Source of the DNA: an uncultured virus (IMG/VR IMGVR_UViG_3300048580_000371) | Lineage: Duplodnaviria > Heunggongvirae > Uroviricota > Caudoviricetes | Virus record (IMG/VR): IMGVR_UViG_3300048580_000371 | Reading direction: 5' to 3' (one strand) | DNA length: 64,000 nucleotides | In this document: piece after piece, positions 3,585 to 52,466 of the stretch | Layout of the letters: every line of letters begins with the position of its first letter | How positions within the stretch are numbered: position 1 is the first letter of the stretch | Made by a program: the position numbers and the translations under genes | The notes under the pieces: generated by a model | What the model was told of the DNA's origin: nothing | What the model saw: the letters and a program-made list of their open reading frames with translations, nothing else | Database searches by the model: none

Positions 3585-4385
3585 ATGACAACCACTTATG
3601 AACAAAAATATGATGCTTGGTTCCATTCACAGTTATCTCGATTCGGGAATTATCATTGGACTGATACTGGTGTTGATTTGGAACTTGATAATCCAGAAAA
3701 CAGCCCAGAAGTTGCAATCAAGCAGATGATTTCGTTTTTCGCCGGTATTGGGGCTGAATTTCTTTCTGAAAAAAGTTTTGAAACATTATATGGGCTTGGT
3801 TTTACCACCATTGAATCCATTATTAATTCTTCTCCTGATGAAATTGAAAAAGCTCTTGGTAGTAAAATTGGTCGTAAGGGAATGGAAAGTATTGCGTCCA
3901 AATTAAATCCAATTCCACTTTGGAAGTTATTGGGTTCATCTCCTGTATTTAAAAATGGGATAGGTCGTAGGAAGATGAAATTAATTTATGAACATCATGG
4001 GAAAATTTTAGGGCTTTCTATTGCAGAAATAAAGGCTGTGGGTGGCTTTGAAGAAAAAACAGCCACACAGGTATACAATGGTTTTGCAGAAGCAGCAGCC
4101 TTCTTAACCGCTATTGCGGGCAAGTATACAGAAGAAGTGGCTGTACAGAAGGGTTCGAGCCTAACTGGTAAAACATTCGTCTTCACAGGTTTCCGTGATA
4201 AGGAAGCAGAGTCCATCATTGAAAGTCATGGTGGTAAAATTGGTTCCAGTGTATCCAAGACAACAACATATCTGGTCACTAAAGAGAAAAACTCTACTTC
4301 ATCTAAAGCAGTCAAGGCACAAAGCATTGGTGTGACTGTGATTGGATCTGCAGAGTTGAATGATTTATTGGATGGATTAAAATAA
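3585..4385 (+). CDS. ligA: NAD-dependent DNA ligase, C-terminal part (HhH + BRCT)
   Basis: HhH-like GIG/GFEEKTA motifs; BRCT LTGKTFVFTGFR...GGKIGSSVSKTTTYLV...SSKAVKAQSIGV; own GGAG RBS. Confidence 0.88.
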   Translation: MTTTYEQKYDAWFHSQLSRFGNYHWTDTGVDLELDNPENSPEVAIKQMISFFAGIGAEFLSEKSFETLYGLGFTTIESIINSSPDEIEKALGSKIGRKGMESIASKLNPIPLWKLLGSSPVFKNGIGRRKMKLIYEHHGKILGLSIAEIKAVGGFEEKTATQVYNGFAEAAAFLTAIAGKYTEEVAVQKGSSLTGKTFVFTGFRDKEAESIIESHGGKIGSSVSKTTTYLVTKEKNSTSSKAVKAQSIGVTVIGSAELNDLLDGLK

Positions 4386-9061: not shown

Positions 9062-9847
9062 ATGGATAAAGATCTGTACGGAGACCGTATGAAGGGATAT
9101 GAATCTAAAGAACGATTCATGCCATATCTCCCTGTAGTTGCAAGACTTGATGGAAAAGGTTTTAGTAAGTTCACCAAGGGTCTAAAACGCCCCTATGACG
9201 AGCGTATGATAACCCTTATGACAGAAACTGCAAAATACCTTGTGGACAAAAGTAATGCAGTGATTTCACTAAATCAAAGTGATGAAATAACGTTAATTTT
9301 TCGCCCAGAAAATGTATTCTTTGATGGTAAGGTTCAGAAAATGACTTCTGTTCTTGCAAGTATGGCTACAGCTAAATTCAATGAATTAAAGGCTACCATG
9401 CTACCAGAGAAGGCTGCTACATTGGCTGTATTTGATTGTAGGGTGTTCGCTGTGCCGAATGAAACAGAGGCCAGTAACGCATTGTTATGGCGGGTTCATG
9501 ATTGTGTTAAAAATGCAATATCCATGGCTGCACATCATTATTTTGGACATGCGAGAACGATGAATTTGACTGGTAAGGAAAAGCAGGAAAAACTTTTCCA
9601 AGAAGCAGGGGTAAACTTTAATGATTTTAAAAAATCATTTAAAGAAGGTGTTTTTTGTCGTCGTGTTTTGAAAGAAATTGCGATTGATGATGAAACTTGG
9701 GATAAAATTCCAGATAAACATAAACCAGAAAGCAGGGTTGTGTTGCGTCATGCAATTGAAGAGATTGAAATGCCAATTTTCACAAAGGTAATTAATCGTA
9801 ATGATGTTATCTTTAGAAGTGCTGAACCAAAAACTGCTGAAATATAA
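9062..9847 (+). CDS. tRNA(His) guanylyltransferase Thg1-like protein (3'-5' polymerase)
   Basis: RMKxYE, VARLDGKGFSKFT, QSDEITL, FDGKVQKMTS, FDCR, WRxxDCxKNAI. Confidence 0.92.
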   Translation: MDKDLYGDRMKGYESKERFMPYLPVVARLDGKGFSKFTKGLKRPYDERMITLMTETAKYLVDKSNAVISLNQSDEITLIFRPENVFFDGKVQKMTSVLASMATAKFNELKATMLPEKAATLAVFDCRVFAVPNETEASNALLWRVHDCVKNAISMAAHHYFGHARTMNLTGKEKQEKLFQEAGVNFNDFKKSFKEGVFCRRVLKEIAIDDETWDKIPDKHKPESRVVLRHAIEEIEMPIFTKVINRNDVIFRSAEPKTAEI

Positions 9848-13670: not shown

Positions 13671-14453
13671 ATGCCGTTCGATCCCAAAATTGATGATGTC
13701 AAGACTTACAATCATCGTATGGAAAAATCCCTTATCGACAAGATTTTCTGGGTTGATAAGGTTGATAGTTCCATCATCGTTGACTATGGTTGTGCCGATG
13801 GTGTTCTCCTAAAGGCACTTCAGAAACTTTTCCCCGACTATACCTATATTGGTTATGACATTTCCGATGAAATGATCAAGATTGCCAACAAAGGTTCTGA
13901 AGGGATTCTATTTACCACTTCTTGGGATGAAGTGATGGAAGCTTTGAATAAGCTGGAAGGTAAGAAGACTCTTGTACTAAATTCTCTCCTGCATGAAATT
14001 TTCGCATATCTTTCTGCTTCTGAGATTGAAGATTTTTGGAAGCGAGTTTGGGGAAGCAACTTCGACTACGTTTGTGTAAGAGATATGATGGTCTCAGAAA
14101 CCACTTCTCGTCCTTCTGACCCGCTTGCAGTAGCGAGGGTTCGTCAGTTGTTTGATAAGCAGAAGCTTGCACAGTGGGAAGGACGTTGGGGTTCCTTGAA
14201 TGAAAATTGGAGTCTTACACATTTTCTTTTAACTTATCACTACGCTGAAACTTCGTGGGAACGAGAATACAAGGAGAATTATCTTTCCAACTCCCTTGAA
14301 ACTTTCATGCAGTTGATTCCGAAAGAATACTTCCCCCATTTCATGGAACATTATACCCTTCCGTATATCCGTTCCAAGGTTATGAAGGACTTTAATATCC
14401 AATTGCAGGACAGAACCCATATCAAGTTGATTCTCAGTAAGGAGCCTTTTTAA
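13671..14453 (+). CDS. class I SAM-dependent methyltransferase
   Basis: IVDYGCADG, GYDISDEM, SLLHEI. Confidence 0.8.
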   Translation: MPFDPKIDDVKTYNHRMEKSLIDKIFWVDKVDSSIIVDYGCADGVLLKALQKLFPDYTYIGYDISDEMIKIANKGSEGILFTTSWDEVMEALNKLEGKKTLVLNSLLHEIFAYLSASEIEDFWKRVWGSNFDYVCVRDMMVSETTSRPSDPLAVARVRQLFDKQKLAQWEGRWGSLNENWSLTHFLLTYHYAETSWEREYKENYLSNSLETFMQLIPKEYFPHFMEHYTLPYIRSKVMKDFNIQLQDRTHIKLILSKEPF

Positions 14454-15076
14454 TGTCTCTTTCACCAAAAAAGATTTTCGCTGGCATAATGAAATTTTGT
14501 TGTGATATTATTATCTATGTTATTCTTATACAAGGTATTTCTGCTAACCACAGCCAACCAACATTAATCACATTTGGTAATGATCCAACTGTTGGATATA
14601 TTTATGGAAAAATTGCCCAATATGCCACTGATGAAATTATTCCGAATGATGTTGAGATTTTGATTTTAAATTCACAAGGTGGAAATGTTGGGGCTGCAGT
14701 TAATTTGCGAAACCAAATCATTGATAGAAAAATTTCAACATATGTTTCGGAAAATGGGATTTGTGTGTCTGCTTGCACAATGGTGTATGGGGCTGGCAAT
14801 TATAGAATGGCAGAAAAATCTTCAATGTTTGGATTTCATTCACCAAGTTATGGGGCAGACCTTTCAACAGAATCAGACACAAATGGTGTAATTAATAAAA
14901 TTAAAAACGATGTTGTGGTTTATGTTAGGAAACAGTATACAGAAATGATGTTAGAAGATGGTTTATCTAATGAATTTATTCAACGATGGATAAATAAAAA
15001 GGAGGTATCATTCTACACAGCAGAACAAATGTTCAAACTTGGTTTTGTTGATGAAGTTTTAGAGGAGGATAAATGA
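14453..15076 (+). CDS. ClpP/crotonase-fold protein with N-terminal hydrophobic segment
   Basis: LNSQGGNV, CVSACT, GFHSP, A..LGFVD. Confidence 0.7.
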   Translation: MSLSPKKIFAGIMKFCCDIIIYVILIQGISANHSQPTLITFGNDPTVGYIYGKIAQYATDEIIPNDVEILILNSQGGNVGAAVNLRNQIIDRKISTYVSENGICVSACTMVYGAGNYRMAEKSSMFGFHSPSYGADLSTESDTNGVINKIKNDVVVYVRKQYTEMMLEDGLSNEFIQRWINKKEVSFYTAEQMFKLGFVDEVLEEDK

Positions 15077-16521: not shown

Positions 16522-16887
16522 ATGAGAATAATAACAGATGCAGAAAAGAAATTATGGGAATTAATTAATAAGGCTACCACGTTAATGGGACAGCCAAGAA
16601 AACCCTTGTTCATTTTGGAAAAATATTCACCACCAACGTCAATTGATTTGCATGGGTGTACTTTGGAACAAGCGTTCAAGGAAACGATTCATTATGTCCA
16701 CGAAGCCTTTGAATATAAACTAAAAAATATCACTATTATCACAGGAAAAGGTGATAGGCATCCTGAAACATCGATTCGTCGTGAATTACCATTTTGGCTT
16801 GAAAACCCAAGGATTGACCATATGGTTAGTTCTTATGAATTAATCAACAATGGGGCATTCTTGATAAAGTTGAAAAAACACAGTTAG
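16522..16887 (+). CDS. Smr domain protein
   Basis: IDLHGCTLEQA, IITGKG, LPFWL, GAFLIKL. Confidence 0.85.
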   Translation: MRIITDAEKKLWELINKATTLMGQPRKPLFILEKYSPPTSIDLHGCTLEQAFKETIHYVHEAFEYKLKNITIITGKGDRHPETSIRRELPFWLENPRIDHMVSSYELINNGAFLIKLKKHS

Positions 16888-19874: not shown

Positions 19875-19966
19875 GCTTATATCCTTTCATTTTGTATATT
19901 ATAAGTTAACTGTGGAGTTAATACAACAGGTATTTTCATAAATAAGAGTAAAATATGGAGTTAATT

Positions 19967-20917
19967 ATGAGTTTTTTAAATAAGAGTAACGTATTCAAAA
20001 TGTCAAATCTCTGTGTTCTTTCTGTGGACACGTTATCCAAACCCGTATATTATAATGTTGGTTTTCGTGAAATAATTTTTTGTCGTTCGACCCAATTATT
20101 GGAAAGTATGTTAAATGACCCATTAACACAAATTGATATATTGATAACTGATGATAATATTGAAGGGGCATCAACCCATAATTTATTCAAACAAATCCGC
20201 AACGGAACATTAGGTCCAAACCCATTTTTACCAATAATTGTTGCATTGACAAACAAAGATACTAATGTTATTAATAATATGCTGAGTTCTGGTGTAAATG
20301 ATCTTGTCACCAAACCATTATCTGCAGCTGTTATTAATAAACGAGTTGAAACTTTATTACACTGTGAAAAACACTATGCAATAACAGATAATTATATTGG
20401 ACCAGATCGTCGTCCAAAAGAACGTTTGAATCCTGAAAAAGATGTTCTGGTAAAAGTCCCAAATACATTAAAGATAAAAATCAATGGCAGTAAAAAAGAA
20501 AAAGCATTACTTCAACAAATGATTGAAGAATCAAAAGATAAAATTAATGAAGCTTGTGTTAGGGTAAATGGTAATAGTATCAAGATGGCAATTGAACAAT
20601 TAATTTCAAAAGATTCAGATTCTATTGAGATAAAATTATATTATAAAGTATTGGATGATATGGCGAAAGAATTAATTAAAAAACTTCGCAATAAAACCCA
20701 CATCGTTAATTTATGTGAAATTTTACTTCAAATAATAGTATATCTGAAATCACCAACACATCGTGAAAATCCAAATATATCAACATTATTAACATTGGTT
20801 GGTGATACATTGGCTAAATCAGTTGAAAATTTAGATCAAAGTACAGTTTTGGTTAATAATGTTGTTGGCATCATAAAAAAGAATGATGCATTGCATAAAA
20901 TGTTAGATACCGCCTGA
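19967..20917 (+). CDS. response-regulator receiver domain protein
   Basis: IDILITD, IRNG..GPNPFLPIIV, GVNDLVTKPLS, YIGPDRR; CATAAATA upstream. Confidence 0.8.
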   Translation: MSFLNKSNVFKMSNLCVLSVDTLSKPVYYNVGFREIIFCRSTQLLESMLNDPLTQIDILITDDNIEGASTHNLFKQIRNGTLGPNPFLPIIVALTNKDTNVINNMLSSGVNDLVTKPLSAAVINKRVETLLHCEKHYAITDNYIGPDRRPKERLNPEKDVLVKVPNTLKIKINGSKKEKALLQQMIEESKDKINEACVRVNGNSIKMAIEQLISKDSDSIEIKLYYKVLDDMAKELIKKLRNKTHIVNLCEILLQIIVYLKSPTHRENPNISTLLTLVGDTLAKSVENLDQSTVLVNNVVGIIKKNDALHKMLDTA

Positions 20918-32940: not shown

Positions 32941-33381
32941 TTATTCTCCTCTAAATTTTCTTTTACTAATATATAAAATATCATAAGCAGGATATTTTAA
33001 TTTCATTAACATAGCATCACCCTTGGTATCAATCCCAATAATTCCAAAATTAACATCTTCTGGGTTTGTATCACGACATTTAATGCACAATCCTTTATAT
33101 GGATGAATAGTTTGGTTTTTTTCAATTTTATCCAAAAATCCAACTTGCCAATATGGATGCTTTTTGAAAATATCATGCAATTTTACTGTAAAAAGAGAAC
33201 TATACATTAAACCAATATTGCCCTTTTGTAAATGTGGATTATCAAGTGATTCAGGTCTAATAAAATATAAAAACCACCCTTCTCGACTCTGCAATTCATA
33301 TTTGGTTTCAACAGCAAGACTTTTTGGTATAAGTGGTTTATTATATTGAATAATTGGTATTAATCCTGACAAATCAATCAT
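32941..33381 (-). CDS. FKLRW-motif family protein (variant)
   Basis: DAMLMKLKY. Confidence 0.65.
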   Translation of the reverse strand: MIDLSGLIPIIQYNKPLIPKSLAVETKYELQSREGWFLYFIRPESLDNPHLQKGNIGLMYSSLFTVKLHDIFKKHPYWQVGFLDKIEKNQTIHPYKGLCIKCRDTNPEDVNFGIIGIDTKGDAMLMKLKYPAYDILYISKRKFRGE

Positions 33382-33809
33382 AATTCATACACCACAGGAT
33401 TGATAATTTCTTCTTCAATGATTTGTGAAATAATTCTCCAATCTCCCCCTGCCAATCCTGCTGAAATTTTTGGCATTGCAACAGGCATATTACCAACACA
33501 ATTGGTTACCTTTTTTAAACAAGTTCTAATGGCTTCATAATTACAATATTGCCTACCATCATGCCCATAAAATTGTTGGGTTACCATATTAAAGATAATA
33601 TACTTTCCATCTTGAGTCAACGCTGGAATGTTGTTGCCCAAAAATAATCCATGGTTGGTATATTCTTGATGATATAATTCATACACTTCTGGATACTTTG
33701 CCCGAATGGCTTTGGCTATTCCAGAGGCCATACGACCTTGGGCATTGCATGATTGGGCAAGTATCATTTCTGGTGCTTTTAATAGATCACCTTTTTTATA
33801 AATTATCAT
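33378..33809 (-). CDS. macro domain protein (ADP-ribose-1''-phosphatase-like)
   Basis: GDLL, QSCNAQGRMASGIAKAI, AMPKISAGLAGGDW. Confidence 0.9.
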   Translation of the reverse strand: MIIYKKGDLLKAPEMILAQSCNAQGRMASGIAKAIRAKYPEVYELYHQEYTNHGLFLGNNIPALTQDGKYIIFNMVTQQFYGHDGRQYCNYEAIRTCLKKVTNCVGNMPVAMPKISAGLAGGDWRIISQIIEEEIINPVVYEL

Positions 33810-34296: not shown

Positions 34297-35393
34297 TAAC
34301 CAGCCCCAAAAACGTTATTGATTTGGGCAGTTACTTGTACAAACGTTGCCCGTTTTGGCATTTCTTTAATGGTTCGTGCGCCCATATATGTGGCTGCAGA
34401 ATTCAACCCACCAAGGATTTCAGAGATAGTATTCTTGACTGGACCACGATATGGGACATCAACAGACTTACCTTCAGATGCCCGATATTCCTTTAATCCA
34501 CCATTATATTTTTCCATGGCTTCTTTACTGGACATACCATATGCACGTTTGAATTTTTTTACTTCAACAATCTGCTTATCATTTTCGTCCAATTCATTGG
34601 TAAGGAACCGCTTGGTGATAATTTCACCACCAGACTCATCATGCCCAGCGAACATCCCACCAACCATCGTGAAATCAGCACCACCAGAATAGGCTTTAGC
34701 GAAGTCACCAGGGACTGTCAACCCACCATCTGCACAAACCATGCCACCAACACCATGGGCAGCATCTGCACATTCAATAACAGATGATAGTTGTGGATAA
34801 CCAATGCCTGTGACTTTGCGGGTAAGACAAAATGCCCCAGGACCAATACCAATTTTTACCACAGATACACCAGACAAAATCAATTCTTCAGTCATTTCTG
34901 GTGTGACAACGTTGCCAGCCATAACCGCAATATTGGGGAATTCATCTTTGAACCGTTTGATAAAATCAACGAATGATTGCTGATAACCATTGGCAACATC
35001 AATACAAATTTTGTTTGGTTGTAGTTCAGTTGGCAATAGTGAATTGACTGTGCGAAGTTTTTCCATATCTTTCTCAACCAAACCAATACTATACCAAGTA
35101 TTTCCAGTCACTGTGGAAGACTCATTCTTCCAAAAATCAATTAAAGTTTCAACGTCATAATGTTTGTGAATGGCTGTCATACAAGAATGTTCTGATAGTG
35201 CCTTTGCCATCTCAAGGGTACCTGATGAATCCATATTGGCTGCGATGATTGGGGTACCTTGCCATTCAACAGTGGAGTGTAGGAACTTGAATTTGCGAAC
35301 CAACGATACCTCTGAACGAGATGATAGGGTTGACCGTTTTGGTACAAGTAGAACATTTGAATAATCGAGCTTGACGCCATCTTGAAACCGCAT
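34296..35393 (-). CDS. guaC: GMP reductase
   Basis: VLLVPKRSTLSSRSEVSL, IIAANMD, CIDVANGY, KIGIGPGAFCLTR, GYPQLSSVIECADAAHG, YRASEGK; TTGACA-17-TATGAT upstream. Confidence 0.95.
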   Translation of the reverse strand: MRFQDGVKLDYSNVLLVPKRSTLSSRSEVSLVRKFKFLHSTVEWQGTPIIAANMDSSGTLEMAKALSEHSCMTAIHKHYDVETLIDFWKNESSTVTGNTWYSIGLVEKDMEKLRTVNSLLPTELQPNKICIDVANGYQQSFVDFIKRFKDEFPNIAVMAGNVVTPEMTEELILSGVSVVKIGIGPGAFCLTRKVTGIGYPQLSSVIECADAAHGVGGMVCADGGLTVPGDFAKAYSGGADFTMVGGMFAGHDESGGEIITKRFLTNELDENDKQIVEVKKFKRAYGMSSKEAMEKYNGGLKEYRASEGKSVDVPYRGPVKNTISEILGGLNSAATYMGARTIKEMPKRATFVQVTAQINNVFGAG

Positions 35394-39149: not shown

Positions 39150-39359
39150 TTAGTCAATTGTTTTTCGTAAATTAACCATTTTATTATAAGTGTCAATGTG
39201 TCGTTGAATTTCGTTAATTAATGATTGTGCTTTTTTTGGAAACTCATCGTTTGGAAACATTAAATTAACACGATAACTTGAAAGTCTATCTCTCAATTGT
39301 TCAAAATCAACATAATCATATTTTTCTCTATATAATTTTGCATATTCTTCTTTTGTCAT
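39150..39359 (-). CDS. hypothetical protein
   Basis: Coupled ORF. Confidence 0.55.
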   Translation of the reverse strand: MTKEEYAKLYREKYDYVDFEQLRDRLSSYRVNLMFPNDEFPKKAQSLINEIQRHIDTYNKMVNLRKTID

Positions 39360-40624
39360 GATATGTCCTTTGTAAATCCTGGCGCAAAAACTTGTAATAG
39401 TTCAATGATTCTATCAGATGTTTTTTCGTCAACTGGTTGTTTATTATTTTTATTATAAAATTCCATAAATGAACTTACCACTTTATTGAATTTAAAATTT
39501 TCAACATTATATTTCAATTGTTTTTCAAGCATTGTTAAATCAATTGTGGTTGTGCCTTCTTCAGACAACCATTTTTTCATACGATTTAAAAATCTCCGAA
39601 CCCCAACGATATGTGAATCAGACCAATCGCCGCCATCAAAATAATGCCCAATGAACATTAGATACATTCTGAGTTCATCAGAATTAAATTCATCTGGTGA
39701 AACAACATTGCCTCTTGATTTGGACATTTTAGCCCCATCTTTGGTAATCATCCCCTGATGAATAACTTTTTTAAATGGTTCTTCATTTGGAACAATTCCT
39801 AAATCATATAAAAACATATGAATAAAACGGGCATATATAAGATGCATACATGCGTGTTCTGGACCACCAACATACAAATCGACTTGTTTATAATCACCAG
39901 ATGGTAAAAATTCATCATTGGCATTAGTACAATAGCGAAGATAATAAAATGATGAATCGACAAATGTATCCAAAGTATCAGTTTCACCTTCAATTGGTAT
40001 TGGGCACCCCCATTTCCTCTGCCTTGATACACACCAATCTCGCAAATTTTCCAACCAAACTCGTTGTTGTTTAATAGTACCAGATGGATAATCTAAAGTA
40101 TCAAGATTTTTAATCAAACGATCTTTGTATTCTGTGATTTTAAAATACCATTGATTGAGATTTTTCATTTCAACTTTTGTCCCACAACGTTCACAAATAC
40201 CATCTTTAGCTTGTTCATTTGCCAATACTGTATCACAAGATGGACAAAAATTGACATCGCCATATGATTTATAGGCAAGACCTTTCTCATATAATTTTGT
40301 AAAAACCCATTGTGTCCATTTAATATAATTAGGTTCGCTTGTTACTAATTTTTCTTCATAACAAGTGTTCATATGTTCCATTTGTTTTCGAAAATTTATA
40401 ATATTGTTGTTAGTTACAATTCTTGGATCGCCGCCGATTTTAATAGCATAATTTTCAGCTGGCAAACCAAATGCATCATATCCAAATGGTTGGAAAACTT
40501 CTTCCCCTTGAAGTTTTAACCAACGACAATATGAATCCACAATTGCATAATTATAATAATGTCCTATATGTAGCCCATCACCAGATGGATACGGGAACAT
40601 CACACAAATATATTTTTGTTCCAT
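39356..40624 (-). CDS. leuS: minimal leucyl-tRNA synthetase (no CP1 editing domain)
   Basis: MFPYPSGDGLHIGH, GYDAFGLPAENYAIK, VLANEQ, RDWCVSRQRKWGCPIP, ETDTLDTFVDSS, YVGGPEHA, KMSKS. Confidence 0.9.
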   Translation of the reverse strand: MEQKYICVMFPYPSGDGLHIGHYYNYAIVDSYCRWLKLQGEEVFQPFGYDAFGLPAENYAIKIGGDPRIVTNNNIINFRKQMEHMNTCYEEKLVTSEPNYIKWTQWVFTKLYEKGLAYKSYGDVNFCPSCDTVLANEQAKDGICERCGTKVEMKNLNQWYFKITEYKDRLIKNLDTLDYPSGTIKQQRVWLENLRDWCVSRQRKWGCPIPIEGETDTLDTFVDSSFYYLRYCTNANDEFLPSGDYKQVDLYVGGPEHACMHLIYARFIHMFLYDLGIVPNEEPFKKVIHQGMITKDGAKMSKSRGNVVSPDEFNSDELRMYLMFIGHYFDGGDWSDSHIVGVRRFLNRMKKWLSEEGTTTIDLTMLEKQLKYNVENFKFNKVVSSFMEFYNKNNKQPVDEKTSDRIIELLQVFAPGFTKDIS

Positions 40625-48017: not shown

Positions 48018-48755
48018 ATGATAGGACGATTTTTAGATTTAACCAATTTGAGTGAAGGCGCAACAGAACAGGATATTATCGATCTTTGTTCTTTAGCCAA
48101 AGAAAATCCCACAATAGTTGCAGGCGTTTGTTCATGGCCAATTTTTGCAGATGTGATTAAAAATGAACTCCAAAATACAGACTTGAAAACTGTCTGCGTT
48201 TTAAATTTCCCCCATGGTCATTCTTGTGATATGGATAATGAAATTAAAAAACATAAAATAGTGCTGCAAGCTTTTTGTGATGAAATTGATGTTGTGTTTG
48301 ATTATGGATATGTTAAAAAAACTACAGGTGCAAATTCAGGTAACGTTTTAAAAACTAAAGACATATTTGGTAAAAAAACTGTTAAAGTTATATTAGAATC
48401 TGGAATTTTATCTCCCTATGAATGCCAAATGGCTGCTCATGATGCTATTAATTCTGGCGCTGATTTTTTAAAAACAAGTACTGGGAAAACTGCTATTTAT
48501 GGTAATGAAATGTGTAATATCGGTGCCACACCATTGGCTGTTAAAATTATGTGCAATGAGATTGCACATCATTATTCAAAAACAAAACGAAAGGTTGGAA
48601 TTAAAGTTTCTGGTGGTGTAAAGACTAATGACCAAGCCCAAGAATATATTGAAATAGTAAGGGAATTATTAGGCGACGAATGGTTGGTCCCAGAATTATT
48701 CCGTATAGGTATAGGGACAACATCAAATCTTTTAAATGAATGGAAGACAAATTGA
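48018..48755 (+). CDS. deoC: deoxyribose-phosphate aldolase
   Basis: LDLTNL, NFPHG, DEIDVV, KVILESG, GADFLKTSTGK, GIKVSGGV, FRIG. Confidence 0.93.
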   Translation: MIGRFLDLTNLSEGATEQDIIDLCSLAKENPTIVAGVCSWPIFADVIKNELQNTDLKTVCVLNFPHGHSCDMDNEIKKHKIVLQAFCDEIDVVFDYGYVKKTTGANSGNVLKTKDIFGKKTVKVILESGILSPYECQMAAHDAINSGADFLKTSTGKTAIYGNEMCNIGATPLAVKIMCNEIAHHYSKTKRKVGIKVSGGVKTNDQAQEYIEIVRELLGDEWLVPELFRIGIGTTSNLLNEWKTN

Positions 48756-49201
48756 AACCATCTAATAGAACATTGGAAATTATGTTGTTGGTTGTGGTTG
48801 GATTGAATGCCATTGGGTCAATTTATGAAATTATACACTTGATGGTATATATGACTTTTAACCCAACAATATATTTGCCTACGTTGGTATTTATGGTATT
48901 ATCTCGGTATTGGATATGTCATAAATATGCTGGATTTGGATGGAAAAATTTAATATTATCATTTGATATATTTTCCCATATTGTCGTTATTACAGAAGAA
49001 CAAAAAACCAATTATGCAATGACAAAATTTAAATCCGAAATAGAAAATGTTGAACATGGTAAAATGCTTGTGTTTTTTCCTGATACAGTTTTGGTTGACT
49101 GGTTGAAAAATAATATTAAAGGACCATATTATAAAGAATTTAATAGGGTAAAATTTCTAAATAAGAAAGATGCAATGATGTTTAAATTGGTATGGAGTTA
49201 A
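48740..49201 (+). CDS. FKLRW-motif family protein with TM segments
   Basis: DAMMFKLVWS. Confidence 0.75.
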   Translation: MEDKLKPSNRTLEIMLLVVVGLNAIGSIYEIIHLMVYMTFNPTIYLPTLVFMVLSRYWICHKYAGFGWKNLILSFDIFSHIVVITEEQKTNYAMTKFKSEIENVEHGKMLVFFPDTVLVDWLKNNIKGPYYKEFNRVKFLNKKDAMMFKLVWS

Positions 49202-49203
49202 TT

Positions 49204-49524
49204 ATGGATGCTTTTGAAAAAATGAAAATTGAAGATGCAACAAAAAGGATGTATGAAGAAATACGCAACATGCGCCCAAATAAATTTGACCCACCATGGG
49301 ACAATTTAAATAGAAAAATTCAAGATTGTTTTCGTGCAATGGCAAGAGTTACAATGAACAATTATGAAACATTTCCTGATATCTATATGGCTACAAGCAC
49401 CATGTATGAAACATTCACATCAATGAGACAATCTCCTCTTTATATGGATGCACCATGGGGTGAATTGATGGAAAAATATAAACAAGGGTTTGAATTATTG
49501 ACCAAAACAGTGTTGAGATTATGA
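49204..49524 (+). CDS. hypothetical protein with two internal repeats
   Basis: MYE..R...D.PW..L..K....F twice. Confidence 0.6.
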   Translation: MDAFEKMKIEDATKRMYEEIRNMRPNKFDPPWDNLNRKIQDCFRAMARVTMNNYETFPDIYMATSTMYETFTSMRQSPLYMDAPWGELMEKYKQGFELLTKTVLRL

Positions 49525-49763
49525 GTATTAGAGTAGATATATTCAATAAAAGTGAAATTGAATGGGCTGAAATATGCAAGTGGTTGTTGGAAAACGCCCA
49601 TGCAGATATACAAGATGGGCATAACAATTCGTTGTTTAGGGAAATTCAACATTGGGCAGAACGTGATAAAACATATTTGATCACAACCAATAACGAATTT
49701 TGGGGAACAATGTATTTCGAAGATAGTAAAGATGCCATGCTATACAAAATGAGATGGGGGTGA
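49521..49763 (+). CDS. FKLRW-motif family protein
   Basis: DAMLYKMRWG. Confidence 0.75.
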   Translation: MSIRVDIFNKSEIEWAEICKWLLENAHADIQDGHNNSLFREIQHWAERDKTYLITTNNEFWGTMYFEDSKDAMLYKMRWG

Positions 49764-49780
49764 AGATGATTGAAATCAGG

Positions 49781-49809
49781 TTGACAAAATTATACTTTCA
49801 TTGTATTAT
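49781..49809 (+). promoter_or_regulatory. sigma70-like promoter
   Basis: TTGACA-17 bp-TATTAT. Confidence 0.65.
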
Positions 49810-49835
49810 TAGAATTGGTATATCAAACAAAGAAG

Positions 49836-50081
49836 ATGAATATGGAAATAATGATAGGAAAACATGATTTTTATCATCGCCAACAAGAAATTGTAAATTG
49901 GTGTATTAAAAATTTTGGAACAAGGGGTTCCACGTTATATTTTTCAAAATATCCTGAACGTTGGGCATATGAAATTTTTTTTGGCAATGGTATATTCAAA
50001 TTTAAAACCAATGCAGATGCAATGTTGTTCAAATTATGTTGGGGTGGAACAGTGTCACCTGAAAACCATATGGGGTCATAA
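49836..50081 (+). CDS. FKLRW-motif family protein
   Basis: DAMLFKLCWGG. Confidence 0.7.
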   Translation: MNMEIMIGKHDFYHRQQEIVNWCIKNFGTRGSTLYFSKYPERWAYEIFFGNGIFKFKTNADAMLFKLCWGGTVSPENHMGS

Positions 50082-50557
50082 TGAAAAACTCTAAAGATTT
50101 TCCATACCTTGTTGAAATATCCCATAAGGCATATTATGGGAAACATGAGTTTTATAATAGGTACAATAATGTGACTAATTGGAAATGGTCAAATGATGGG
50201 AAAAAGAACAATGTGTCAGCATATAATCATGGTTTGCGTAAAGAAATAAATCAATGGATTGTTGATAATACTGATGGGGGAATAGAGGATAACACTATTC
50301 TTTATTGGAGGTTTAAATTTGAAAAAGATGCTCAAAAATTCATTGATGTAGGTTTTGGTTCATATGAAGTCAGACTTCGTGATTTATCATCTTTTGAAAA
50401 ATCACAACTAATTAGTTGGTATGTAAATACATCATTAGAAAGTATTTGGCGTGGAACCCACTTTTTCAATCCAGATAGAGAAATTAAATATACCCATAAT
50501 GTCATAAAATTTGATAAAAAAGAAGAAGCAATGTTTTGTAAATTAAAGTGGGGATAA
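50081..50557 (+). CDS. FKLRW-motif family protein (two tandem domains)
   Basis: internal FKFEKDAQKF and terminal EAMFCKLKWG. Confidence 0.75.
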   Translation: MKNSKDFPYLVEISHKAYYGKHEFYNRYNNVTNWKWSNDGKKNNVSAYNHGLRKEINQWIVDNTDGGIEDNTILYWRFKFEKDAQKFIDVGFGSYEVRLRDLSSFEKSQLISWYVNTSLESIWRGTHFFNPDREIKYTHNVIKFDKKEEAMFCKLKWG

Positions 50558-50616
50558 ATATTGACTTGAGTGATAAAATTGTTATACAGTATTTAAAATA
50601 TTAAAGGAGTTATTGT

Positions 50617-51627
50617 ATGAGAACCATATTGGAAAAAGAAGATGTTATAATCTATTTCGCTGGGAAGACTTGGCACGCTGATAAATTCCGCATAATGCAT
50701 GAGAAGGGGTATAATACCAATGCTTCTTGGGTATATCTACCTGGGAAATTAACCAGCCGTGAAGATTTTCATCCACCTATTCAAACAATGACAAGGGAAC
50801 AAAAAGAAGAAATTTGGCACCATTGTTTATATGAAAGTTCCCACTGTGATATAGTGGTTCTTTATTGTGAACCAGAAGATGGGGATATGTTGTCTGGTGC
50901 TATATCGGAAGCAGGTTCTGCAATGGCTCATGGGAAACAAGTTTACCAGATTGGTTCATGCTCTTCAGTCGAACCAAATAAAAATTCCGATAAAGCGTTC
51001 ACCTATTGTTCTTTTTGGCATGTTGTTCCAGAAACAGATTTGGAAAAAGGTCTTGAATGGATTTTTAATCATTACAATAATAATTATGTTGGAAATTGGC
51101 AAAAAACTCGAAATAATCAACGAATTGAAATCCCAAAACCAACTTCGGTTATGAAATGCAACGACGATAGAACAAAATTTTGGATAGAGAAAGAGAAACC
51201 AGCGCCGACGATGGAAGATATCTTGGGGTCCATTCGCAGGATATTGTCTGAAGATGCTGAAGATGAAAAATTCCCACCAAAACCAACCAAACGTTTTGAT
51301 TGTACAAATGAAGATGAAGAAGCCCTTATGAAAGAATGGGCTGCAATGTCTGATGATAATAGTGAAATTGAAGATACAGGACAAATGGCTGCAGAATGGG
51401 AAGCCATGCTTGGTGCAGGAGAACCATCACATGATAAACAACGTGAAGAGCTTCAACGAAAACTTGCCCATGCAAGGAAAATTGCACCTGAATTCATGGA
51501 AGTAACTGAAAAAGCGTTGAGTCCAAATGAATCTGAATTGTCAGCATTAAAAGAACGTGTTGCTAAATTGGAAACAATTATTAATAATATGATTAATTAT
51601 ACTGATATTGATGGTCCAATTAATTAA
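50617..51627 (+). CDS. nucleoside 2-deoxyribosyltransferase-like domain fused to PopZ-helix-1-like and FliM-like motifs and a coiled coil
   Basis: IYFAG...CDIVV...GAISEAGSAMAHGKQVY; PTMEDILGSIRRILSED; EALMKEWAAM, QMAAEWEAML. Confidence 0.7.
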   Translation: MRTILEKEDVIIYFAGKTWHADKFRIMHEKGYNTNASWVYLPGKLTSREDFHPPIQTMTREQKEEIWHHCLYESSHCDIVVLYCEPEDGDMLSGAISEAGSAMAHGKQVYQIGSCSSVEPNKNSDKAFTYCSFWHVVPETDLEKGLEWIFNHYNNNYVGNWQKTRNNQRIEIPKPTSVMKCNDDRTKFWIEKEKPAPTMEDILGSIRRILSEDAEDEKFPPKPTKRFDCTNEDEEALMKEWAAMSDDNSEIEDTGQMAAEWEAMLGAGEPSHDKQREELQRKLAHARKIAPEFMEVTEKALSPNESELSALKERVAKLETIINNMINYTDIDGPIN

Positions 51628-51680: not shown

Positions 51681-52466
51681 ATGAGATGGTTTGAAATTTG
51701 TGAAACGTATAGTAGAGATAATATAGCATTAATGCGTTATATGAAAGATGGTAAATTTGATCCACACCAATTGTGGTGGTATGTTTGTGTATGGGCTGAA
51801 GACACAGATAATATTGATGCATTTAATGTTGATGCAGGTTCTGAACAAGAATTGAATGAAGAAGACCCAGAATTATTTTGGACATTACCACAAAACCTAC
51901 AAAAAGAATGTATCCAATGGGTATATGATTATGTTAGTCAAAATGACCCATCAGAATTACCAACCCATCAATATCTTAATTTAAAAGACAAACAACTTTT
52001 AAAAAGAACCACTTGGTTAGTTCATTTTTCCAATTCAGCAGATGATATTGCCTATAATGGTTTCACCCAAGGCGTGGATGATATGGGAAGATTGGGGTTA
52101 ACTACCCATTTAGATAGTTTTTATAAAAATGATGCAGGATTTAACTTCGCTTTTTTGGCCAAATCAAGAGATGCCCAATATGCAGCCAGTAAAGAAAAAT
52201 ATGGTGAAGAAGCAGTGTTATTCCAAAATAGTGGTGTTTATGCTTACCATGGGTCAGATGAAGAAAATCAGGTAATGTTTTATGGACCAGATGTGAAACC
52301 AGAAAATATTGTATGGTTGAGAAAAAGAGATGGTGATTGGTGTGTATATCCAAAAGGAAAATGGACTGAAAACAAAGACGGATTATTCACTGGTGACTTT
52401 GATAAATGCGTTGATTGGGTAATAAGTAATTTCGCCCAATATAGAAAGGTATTAACTGGAAAATAA
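51681..52466 (+). CDS. hypothetical late protein, CTS-like start
   Basis: MRWFEICE; CATAAATA 51647-51654. Confidence 0.7.
   Translation: MRWFEICETYSRDNIALMRYMKDGKFDPHQLWWYVCVWAEDTDNIDAFNVDAGSEQELNEEDPELFWTLPQNLQKECIQWVYDYVSQNDPSELPTHQYLNLKDKQLLKRTTWLVHFSNSADDIAYNGFTQGVDDMGRLGLTTHLDSFYKNDAGFNFAFLAKSRDAQYAASKEKYGEEAVLFQNSGVYAYHGSDEENQVMFYGPDVKPENIVWLRKRDGDWCVYPKGKWTENKDGLFTGDFDKCVDWVISNFAQYRKVLTGK

Follow-up and report, generated by a model that had tools for sequence, protein, structure and literature searches.

PopZ- and FliM-type peptides in the tail of a predicted NDT-fold protein of a lake-water jumbo phage

The gene and its product

We analysed a 64-kb stretch of DNA (hereafter the window) from an uncultured tailed phage, IMG/VR record IMGVR_UViG_3300048580_000371. 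Here we focus on one of its open reading frames (ORFs), P0001, whose product joins a domain with a predicted fold of the nucleoside 2-deoxyribosyltransferase (NDT) type to a tail of 147 residues that is acidic and mostly disordered. The tail bears a near-identical copy of the client-binding helix of PopZ, which organises the cell pole (motif H1), two motifs from the N-terminus of FliM, a protein of the flagellar switch (W1 and W2), and a C-terminal helical region (Table 1). The family is tiny: among 5.8 billion clusters we found two relatives of P0001, namely P0002, which has 395 amino acids (aa), is 76% identical and carries the same tail, and P0003, a protein of 192 aa that consists of the N-terminal domain without the tail.

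A preliminary description of this DNA had drawn attention to the interval 51190-51627, which corresponds to residues 192-336 and the stop codon, that is, the last 145 codons of the ORF. All four strings quoted there are present in P0001: PAPTMEDILGSIRRILSED (residues 195-213), EALMKEWAAM (within residues 232-244), QMAAEWEAMLG (residues 256-266) and ELSALKERVAKLE (residues 307-319). When the window was translated in six frames, the tail motifs were found in the P0001 ORF only. The stretch is present in lake-water metagenomes, and one lake-water run yielded variant contigs that are 95-99% identical. Within the P0001 ORF, these variants differ at 14 codons, with 12 synonymous and two non-synonymous changes, which shows that the frame is under purifying selection. 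P0001 is a genuine gene, carried by a jumbo phage that lives in lake water, and the long ORFs on the reverse strand across it are shadows. Reads from the RNA run X20 cover only positions 52224-52395, in the gene downstream of P0001.

A copy of the PopZ client-binding helix

The first motif of the tail had been likened to helix 1 of PopZ, with Caulobacter as the point of reference. When we searched the tail with hidden Markov models, the NCBIfam model PopZ_fam (NF052660) matched with an E value of 6.8e-9 and 37.2 bits over profile positions 2-109 of 167. An isolated N-terminal piece of a genuine Magnetospirillum PopZ scores 38-40 bits on this model; thus, the phage motif scores like a real H1. 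A direct comparison with Magnetospirillum PopZ by BLASTP resulted in 19 identical residues out of 27 (E 2e-7). Furthermore, a profile built from three phage proteins and compared to the whole PDB had its best match in PopZ (6xry, E 2.2e-4), and the alignment displays the very Caulobacter sequence quoted in the preliminary description. Across five Rhodospirillales genomes, the H1 of PopZ reads PSMEDILASIRRILSED or PSMEDILASIRKILSED, with the IRRIL form in three and the IRKIL form in two of them. The phage core MEDILGSIRRILSED shares 14 of 15 residues with PSMEDILASIRRILSED (the IRRIL form) compared to 12 of 15 with the Caulobacter-type MEEILASIRRIISED. The likeness to PopZ helix 1 is thus borne out, whereas the nearest source is of the Magnetospirillum type and not Caulobacter.

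Passages of PMC9512792 describe a common plan of PopZ across the alphaproteobacteria, in which H1 is followed by an acidic linker and a conserved oligomerisation domain. According to parts of PMC12999525, H1 recruits the partners of PopZ and, in the dilute phase, also touches PopZ's own oligomerisation domain. Residues E7-E23 of PopZ respond to the receiver protein CpdR, and the same region had earlier been mapped for RcdA and ChpT, as an excerpt of PMC11519897 reports. What P0001 has in common with PopZ (NF052660, 6xry) is a near-identical amphipathic helix of 15-17 residues and the acidic segment that follows it. The position differs, as H1 lies internally (residues 197-213) on a phage enzyme, whereas in PopZ it is N-terminal and comes with an oligomerisation domain. 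Pfam PF10691 (DUF2497), which represents this domain, has no match in P0001 at E values up to 10, and BLASTP over the oligomerisation region of PopZ returned only a non-significant stretch of 14 residues (E 0.21). The whole protein scores 34.4 bits on PopZ_fam, compared to a curated cut-off of 125 and 137.2 bits for a host PopZ. With no oligomerisation domain and a score far below the cut-off, membership of P0001 in the PopZ family is ruled out.

Two motifs of the FliM N-terminus

The 13-mer W1 and the 12-mer W2 are identical, and in the same order, to the FliM N-terminus of Paramagnetospirillum marisnigri and its relatives, and BLASTP of the tail against FliM gives an E value of 1e-10. A resemblance to the N-termini of FliM or FliN had been proposed as less certain; the exact matches make the FliM part stronger than that, whereas the FliN part did not hold. 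P0001 thus repeats letter for letter two motifs of the FliM N-terminal docking region with its Magnetospirillum-type extension, and the two differ in the spacer between W1 and W2, which has 12 residues and is acidic in P0001 but is longer and Gly-rich in the host FliM.

To place these motifs, we scanned one genome per species (185,579 species) for the W1 pattern and obtained 51 loci. All 51 carry the motif within the first 40 residues of one type of ORF, which has the order W1, Gly-rich spacer, W2, RVLNQDEIDSLLGFD and FliM core; 50 of them reach the EIDSLL peptide of FliM and one ends after 56 residues. The loci are labelled as Magnetospirillum, Paramagnetospirillum, Phaeospirillum, Telmatospirillum, Haematospirillum, Novispirillum and Stygiobacter, or belong to metagenome-assembled genomes (MAGs) of Rhodospirillaceae, Rhodospirillales, Alphaproteobacteria, Proteobacteria or Pseudomonadota. 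Two further labels, Actinomycetota and Bacteroidota, are attached to MAGs whose sequence is of the same FliM type and are probably binning errors. One host FliM (L003) scores 301.6 bits on TIGR01397, and the model begins at residue 75, so that W1 and W2 form a lineage-specific extension before the canonical FliM. Both EWEAML and the EIDSLL block are invariant in all 34 FliM-type sequences (31 bacterial and three phage-type).

Searching 1.84 billion representatives with the tail by phmmer returned only eight proteins at E<=1e-3, including P0001, and the W1 core is invariant in all eight aligned motif-bearing proteins. Scanning metagenomes with P0001 gave 25 loci: one phage of 543 kb and 24 loci of high G+C content with W motifs. 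The latter comprise 20 FliM genes with the core, two cut FliM starts and two copies of a longer ORF that has W1-like, W2 and EID motifs without a FliM core. Two extra loci from a scan of IMG/VR with the query A1 were rejected, as they encode an unrelated protein of 149 aa with a chance KALMKEWAAL; IMG/VR scans with the motif-bearing proteins P0004 and P0006 found nothing. P0001 itself has no match to PF02154, PF01052 or TIGR01397, and a pattern search of the window in six frames found no CheY-docking peptide of the EIDAL/EIDSLL type. Lacking the FliM core and the EIDSLL peptide, P0001 is ruled out as a member of FliM.

Phosphorylated CheY (CheY-P) is one published partner of the FliM N-terminus. 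FlhG acts via the same region, according to a part of PMC12826062. By eye, W1, W2 and EIDSLL follow a common template of Glu, a bulky hydrophobic residue, an acidic or small residue, a small residue, Met or Leu, Leu or Ala, and Gly, and W1 and W2 may be diverged docking helices. An AlphaFold2 model of the host FliM, built from 34 sequences and inspected for docking of W1 and W2 in cis, was uninformative (mean predicted local distance difference test score, pLDDT, of 52.6; N-terminal helices 27-51).

Only phage-type proteins combine the motifs

Within five candidate-host genomes, the PopZ model matches the PopZ frame only. A degenerate DNA pattern for E-W-x-A-M matches the same genomes at 21 places, ten of which are W1 or W2 of FliM. 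The others include one match in a Sel1-repeat protein, four in one conserved ORF of ~710 aa and one in a Trp-rich ORF of 252 aa, and the rest lie in short or unlikely frames. Thus, W1 and W2 are confined to FliM in four of the five genomes, and the fifth adds a Sel1/FliG_C-like protein. This protein of P. marisnigri (L109 3599-5983) has 794 aa, five Sel1 repeats and a borderline FliG_C match (23.1 bits vs 23.3). Its W1 (DDEEALMAEWAAMAG) is of the exact type and is accompanied by a segment that resembles W2, and the protein is the sole non-FliM carrier of W1 in the five genomes. On its contig of 7.9 kb it adjoins an ORF of 1150 aa in which we recognized, by eye, an ATPase-type GSGKS loop and tetratricopeptide-like repeats.

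H1 was found in none of the 31 bacterial FliM sequences but in all three phage-type FliM, and the 51 W1 loci have no H1-like string on the FliM strand. Only phage-type proteins combine H1 with W1 and W2. These motifs are carried by NDT-fold enzymes (P0001 and P0002), by FliM (G306, P0005 and P0006) and by proteins without a family (P0004, P0007 and P0010), and H1 and W motifs co-occur in eight of the ten motif-bearing proteins listed. For instance, P0004 combines two peptides of the EID type with W2, W1, H1 and a zipper whose DGP end resembles that of P0001, whereas P0007 and P0010 each contain two copies of H1 plus W1. The match to PopZ_fam is confined to the first 23-55 positions in P0004 and P0007-P0010, and H1 seems to be a portable module outside PopZ.

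Two further proteins carry several copies of H1. In P0008 (413 aa; cluster members P0012-P0014), a TIR domain (PF13676, E 6.5e-16) precedes four tandem copies, and PADLOC gives weak TIR-type matches for this protein. P0009 (364 aa) has three copies and is named PopZ by one source. One might speculate that a TIR protein baited with copies of H1 is a sensor of the decoy type.

The C-terminal zipper

AlphaFold2 predicts helices at residues 272-301 and 305-330, with low pLDDT. The heptad signal peaks at residues 298-325, which corresponds to a zipper of four heptads, and none of 300 shuffled sequences reaches this peak; the coiled coil of the preliminary description is thus supported. Ends composed of a zipper plus DGP are similar in P0001, P0002 and P0004. 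Searching the five candidate-host genomes with the C-terminal 67 residues returned nothing at E<=1, a search that had no positive control and is thus not informative. With its predicted leucine zipper, P0001 should be at least dimeric and hence multivalent.

Conservation, codon usage and host

Comparing P0001 to P0002, we find diverging linkers, whereas all three motifs are conserved and so is the zipper. In addition, a second and degenerate copy of H1 (EPTTEEICAAIKRIVDED) has been gained by P0002 between a conserved HARKI-PEFME segment and the zipper. The G+C content at third codon positions is 0.22 in the tail and 0.28 in the N-terminal domain, compared to 0.67 in the N-terminus of the host FliM, so the tail follows the phage's own codon usage. 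The motifs have thus been kept through complete codon amelioration, which argues against a recent capture or a chimeric assembly. Overall, the pattern looks like selection on the peptides. The identity of the motifs points to a Magnetospirillum-type member of the Rhodospirillales as the likely host.

The N-terminal domain

The AlphaFold2 model of P0001 was built from the three known family members and has moderate confidence in the N-terminal domain (pLDDT 60-88 in most blocks). Its best structural match by VIA-align is the NDT 7o62 (Z 11.4, root-mean-square deviation 3.5, 128 aligned positions over residues 2-163), followed by YtoQ (10.7), 6evs (10.5), 6qai (9.8), MilB (9.4) and RCL (9.3); the Z scores to NDTs over residues 2-163 are 11.4, 10.5, 9.8, 9.5 and 9.0. 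Of the ten best chains, nine have an NDT-type fold or are nucleotide N-glycosidases, namely NDTs, a putative NDT, YtoQ, MilB and RCL. The remaining chain is a conserved protein without a name, and TIR domains come next with a Z of ~8. Among viral structures in BFVD, five match at E<=1e-3, of which three bear the name NDT or N-deoxyribosyltransferase. Foldseek against PDB found nothing at E<=1e-3 (best E 2.9e-3), the sequence search of PDB with this domain gave chance matches to antibodies only, and Pfam PF15891 scores 13.4 bits, below its cut-off of 30. The model thus places the N-terminal domain in the NDT/DNPH1 N-glycosidase fold, in line with the NDT-like domain named in the preliminary description, at moderate model confidence and with Pfam scores below threshold.

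Enzymes of the NDT family use a Glu as nucleophile. Glu98, in the string SGAISEAG, is invariant in all three family members known so far and falls within the stretch aligned by Pfam. P0001 shares with known NDT-like proteins of phages (PF05014/PF15891) and with the N-glycosidases DNPH1/RCL, MilB and BcmB the predicted fold and the Gly-rich N-terminal strand-loop, and its conserved Glu may sit at the position of the family's catalytic region. It differs from them by its sub-threshold Pfam score, the motif tail and its having only two relatives.

Other searches returned little for P0001. A metagenome scan with an alignment of the N-terminal domain gave 595 pattern matches, of which none was confirmed. 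There were no PHROGs families for P0001 or its tail and no PADLOC families for P0001 and its two neighbours, and the best feature scores in ESM Atlas (0.82-0.83) are within the range of chance. With tblastn, P0001 has no match at E<=0.01 among 50,697 records of cultured phages, and the tail alone has only two chance matches at E<=10 in the same records.

Genomic context and a related phage of 543 kb

Table 1. Coordinates of P0001, its parts and further genes in the 64-kb window
Feature	Coordinates	Strand	Description
Whole ORF P0001	50617..51627	+	336 aa plus stop
NDT/DNPH1-type domain (predicted)	50620..51105	+	residues 2-163
H1 motif PTMEDILGSIRRILSED	51205..51255	+	residues 197-213; copy of the PopZ client-binding helix; predicted helix 199-211
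W1 motif EDEEALMKEWAAM	51310..51348	+	residues 232-244; first FliM N-terminal motif; predicted helix 232-245
W2 motif MAAEWEAMLGAG	51385..51420	+	residues 257-268; second FliM N-terminal motif; predicted helix 255-264
C-terminal helical region (predicted)	51430..51606	+	residues 272-330
Shine-Dalgarno-like AAGGAG	50604..50609	+	7 nt upstream of the ATG; read from the sequence
Weak sigma-70-like site	50561-50590		9/12 positions match; AT-rich region with 13 sites vs 7.8 expected; weak evidence
Thg1	9062-9844	+	megaphage-style auxiliary gene
ClpP-like protein	14453-15073	+	megaphage-style auxiliary gene
Smr domain	16522-16884	+	megaphage-style auxiliary gene
Macro domain	33381-33809	-	megaphage-style auxiliary gene
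GMP-reductase/IMPDH-type enzyme	34299-35393	-	megaphage-style auxiliary gene
Class I aminoacyl-tRNA-synthetase-like	39359-40624	-	megaphage-style auxiliary gene

The window has a G+C content of 0.317. The DNA polymerase encoded there has its closest counterparts (48% identity) in Sinorhizobium phage Phosso and Agrobacterium phage Atu_ph07, whose genomes are ~0.47-0.49 Mb, and the window also encodes a T4-type RNA ligase, a split NAD-dependent DNA ligase and many homing endonucleases, besides the auxiliary genes listed in Table 1.

The phage of 543 kb mentioned above (G306) is an IMG/VR contig of 543,035 bp with a G+C content of 0.49 that is 100% complete according to CheckV. It encodes a major capsid protein of the Gp23 type (270 bits) and a DNA polymerase that shares 51% identity with that of the window. 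G306 encodes a FliM (L001 5920-7815) that shares 75% identity with the FliM of P. marisnigri over residues 11-350. The N-terminus of this phage FliM bears H1 (PopZ_fam positions 1-40, E 1.2e-7), and directly after it come two genes for FliN. Furthermore, G306 encodes a canonical single-domain receiver of the CheY type (L133 1423-1806; PF00072, 98 bits) that is 34-36% identical to two CheY proteins of Magnetospirillum, and a second, weaker receiver-like ORF (L132 1498-1965). Taken together, the genes for an H1-bearing FliM, FliN and CheY-like proteins show that this phage group invests in the motor and the pole of its host.

Some neighbouring genes are listed here as observations of their own. 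Around fliM, G306 has a gp30.3-like gene and an NDT-like gene (PF15891). An ORF of 150 aa without a Pfam family (L133 1806-2258) overlaps the first receiver of G306 by one base. The window encodes, at 19955-20914 (+), a protein of 320 aa in which a receiver domain scores below threshold (PF00072, E 8.9e-6, residues 58-131) and the C-terminal part is long and helical. This protein shares 28% identity with a receiver-like ORF of G306. The split ligase consists of an ORF with the adenylation and OB domains (395-1585) and one with the HhH and BRCT domains (3585-4382). The ~2 kb between them hold an ORF for an endonuclease of the HNH/DUF723 type on the opposite strand (1560-2945, -), and the split may be an intron or an intein-less split caused by the homing element. 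Directly upstream of P0001, five small consecutive ORFs without a Pfam match span 48740-50557 (+). Four of them share the C-terminal motif AM-x-[FYC]K-[LM]-x-W-[GS] (e.g. KDAMMFKLVWS, KDAMLYKMRWG, ADAMLFKLCWGG and EEAMFCKLKWG), and the second (49192-49524) is without it; they look like a local paralogous family.

Interpretation of the motif tail

We interpret P0001 as a mimic of host short linear motifs that would either address its enzyme to the flagellated pole or compete for the proteins that read these motifs, and we assign this reading a probability of roughly 0.58. The preliminary description had called the protein a chimeric mimic, and this applies at the level of sequence: the tail joins motifs that the likely host keeps separately on PopZ and on FliM. 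By presenting H1, W1 and W2, the tail would engage those proteins of the host by which the motifs are normally read at the flagellated pole. If the tail serves as an address, the enzyme would be concentrated at the pole or the motor. If it serves as a decoy, partners would be titrated off PopZ and FliM, i.e. CpdR, RcdA and ChpT in the case of H1, and CheY-P and FlhG in the case of the FliM N-terminus. From host-identical peptides that appear to be under selection, we infer binding to the partners in the host.

Several results weigh against this interpretation. The pLDDT of the tail in the AlphaFold2 model is 27-64, which gives no information on docking. The NDT model of Pfam (PF05014, Nuc_deoxyrib_tr) matches residues 12-111 with an E value of 1.4e-4 and 22.4 bits, below its gathering threshold of 28.8. 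A natural variant replaces Glu260, just before the Trp of W2, by Ala (one contig, depth ~3); unless this contig of low depth is wrong, Glu260 is not strictly required. The G+C content of the window (0.32) is far from the 0.54-0.69 of the FliM loci measured in metagenomes, and the host is assigned from motif identity alone. Lastly, among the papers listed by our search of the literature on the Magnetospirillum FliM N-terminus and EIDAL, none plainly treats W1 and W2.

The interpretation can be extended to a wider but doubtful scenario. H1, W1 and W2 might form a portable cassette for the flagellated pole that belongs to a clade of megaphages from lake water. These phages would take over the motor and the pole of the host with their own FliM, FliN and CheY-like proteins, would have bolted H1 onto FliM and would reuse the cassette to deliver or anchor cargo such as an enzyme of the N-glycosidase type. 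All three motifs would then be receiver-docking helices, and together they would act on receiver-domain signalling at the pole as a multivalent trap or platform. H1, the third receiver-docking helix in this scenario, is known to bind the receiver protein CpdR.

Other explanations start from the same observations. The tail could be a phage analogue of PopZ that self-assembles as a hub or condensate and recruits both PopZ clients and the enzyme into a polar or factory compartment made by the phage, going beyond a simple tag or decoy. Its parts follow the order H1, acidic disordered segment and C-terminal helical region, which matches the PopZ plan given in sections of PMC12999525 and PMC9512792; the NCBIfam match reaches position 109, the net charge of residues 190-270 is -14, and the tail has a heptad zipper. 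We nevertheless consider such an analogue unlikely, as PF10691 is missing even at E values up to 10, the score of 37 bits compares to a cut-off of 125 and to 137 for true host PopZ, and a single zipper provides a low valency. Furthermore, only six of the 81 residues in the segment 190-270 are proline, whereas an excerpt of PMC9512792 gives 23-29% for the PopZ linker. Another alternative is that P0001 traps receivers and adaptors and so targets signalling instead of placement, with H1 titrating CpdR, RcdA and ChpT and the W motifs, taken as degenerate helices for CheY docking, titrating CheY-type proteins, which would freeze the cell cycle and chemotaxis. The response of PopZ E7-E23 to CpdR in the consulted part of PMC11519897 fits such a trap, as does the template that W1, W2 and EIDSLL appear to share, and both the window and G306 encode receiver-type proteins. 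[quoted passage not shown]

The tail could also be an evolutionary leftover, i.e. a 5' fragment of a phage fliM with H1, W1 and W2 that recombined onto an NDT gene and has no function. The order of the motifs is that of the N-termini of phage-type FliM, with 49% identity, and the N-terminal domain exists on its own in P0003 (192 aa). This origin is, however, difficult to reconcile with motifs that stay intact between P0001 and P0002 while linkers diverge (76% identity overall), with the second H1-like copy in P0002, with a codon usage that is fully phage-like, with 12 synonymous versus two non-synonymous changes in the variant and with a zipper end that also occurs in P0004; we regard a functionless tail as improbable. 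Lastly, H1 and the W motifs might bind each other, and proteins with both would thereby be cross-linked with host PopZ or FliM, or with themselves, into a network. The Arg-Arg of H1 opposite the acidic W motifs and the presence of both kinds of motif in eight of the ten proteins would agree with this. We consider it highly improbable, given that intramolecular packing is nowhere confident in the AlphaFold2 model (pLDDT 27-42 for residues 170-270) and that M. gryphiswaldense keeps its bipolar flagella when popZ is deleted, as reported in a passage of PMC6414705, so that the placement of FliM in this species is independent of PopZ.

Implications

The mimicry of short linear motifs is a main strategy of eukaryotic viruses. 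The mimic that we propose has in common with those viruses that short host-like peptides sit in a disordered region of a viral protein and are conserved as islands; in those viruses they serve to engage domains of the host. In P0001, host-identical peptides form such conserved islands in a disordered region, in a context that is absent in the host. The difference lies in the setting, which is a phage and a bacterium, and in a single chain that combines three motifs taken from two hubs of the host. Among the literature matches listed, judged on titles and abstracts, we found no phage protein described as a mimic of PopZ or FliM peptides, and no description of short-linear-motif mimicry by a phage. 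Viral motif mimicry as such is already known, and what is new is the proposed phage case, in which an enzyme is joined to motifs that stem from two polar hubs of bacteria.

The family comes with natural controls: P0003 lacks the tail, P0002 has two copies of H1, P0004 lacks the enzyme, and the phage FliM is tagged with H1. As a natural module that can be transplanted, H1 offers a probe for H1 binding outside Caulobacter. Our analysis also flags an N-terminal extension that is invariant in the FliM of magnetotactic spirilla and their relatives, and its copying by a phage points to an interaction that regulates the motor. Finally, the motifs suggest a host group for phages of 0.5 Mb that are otherwise without a host.

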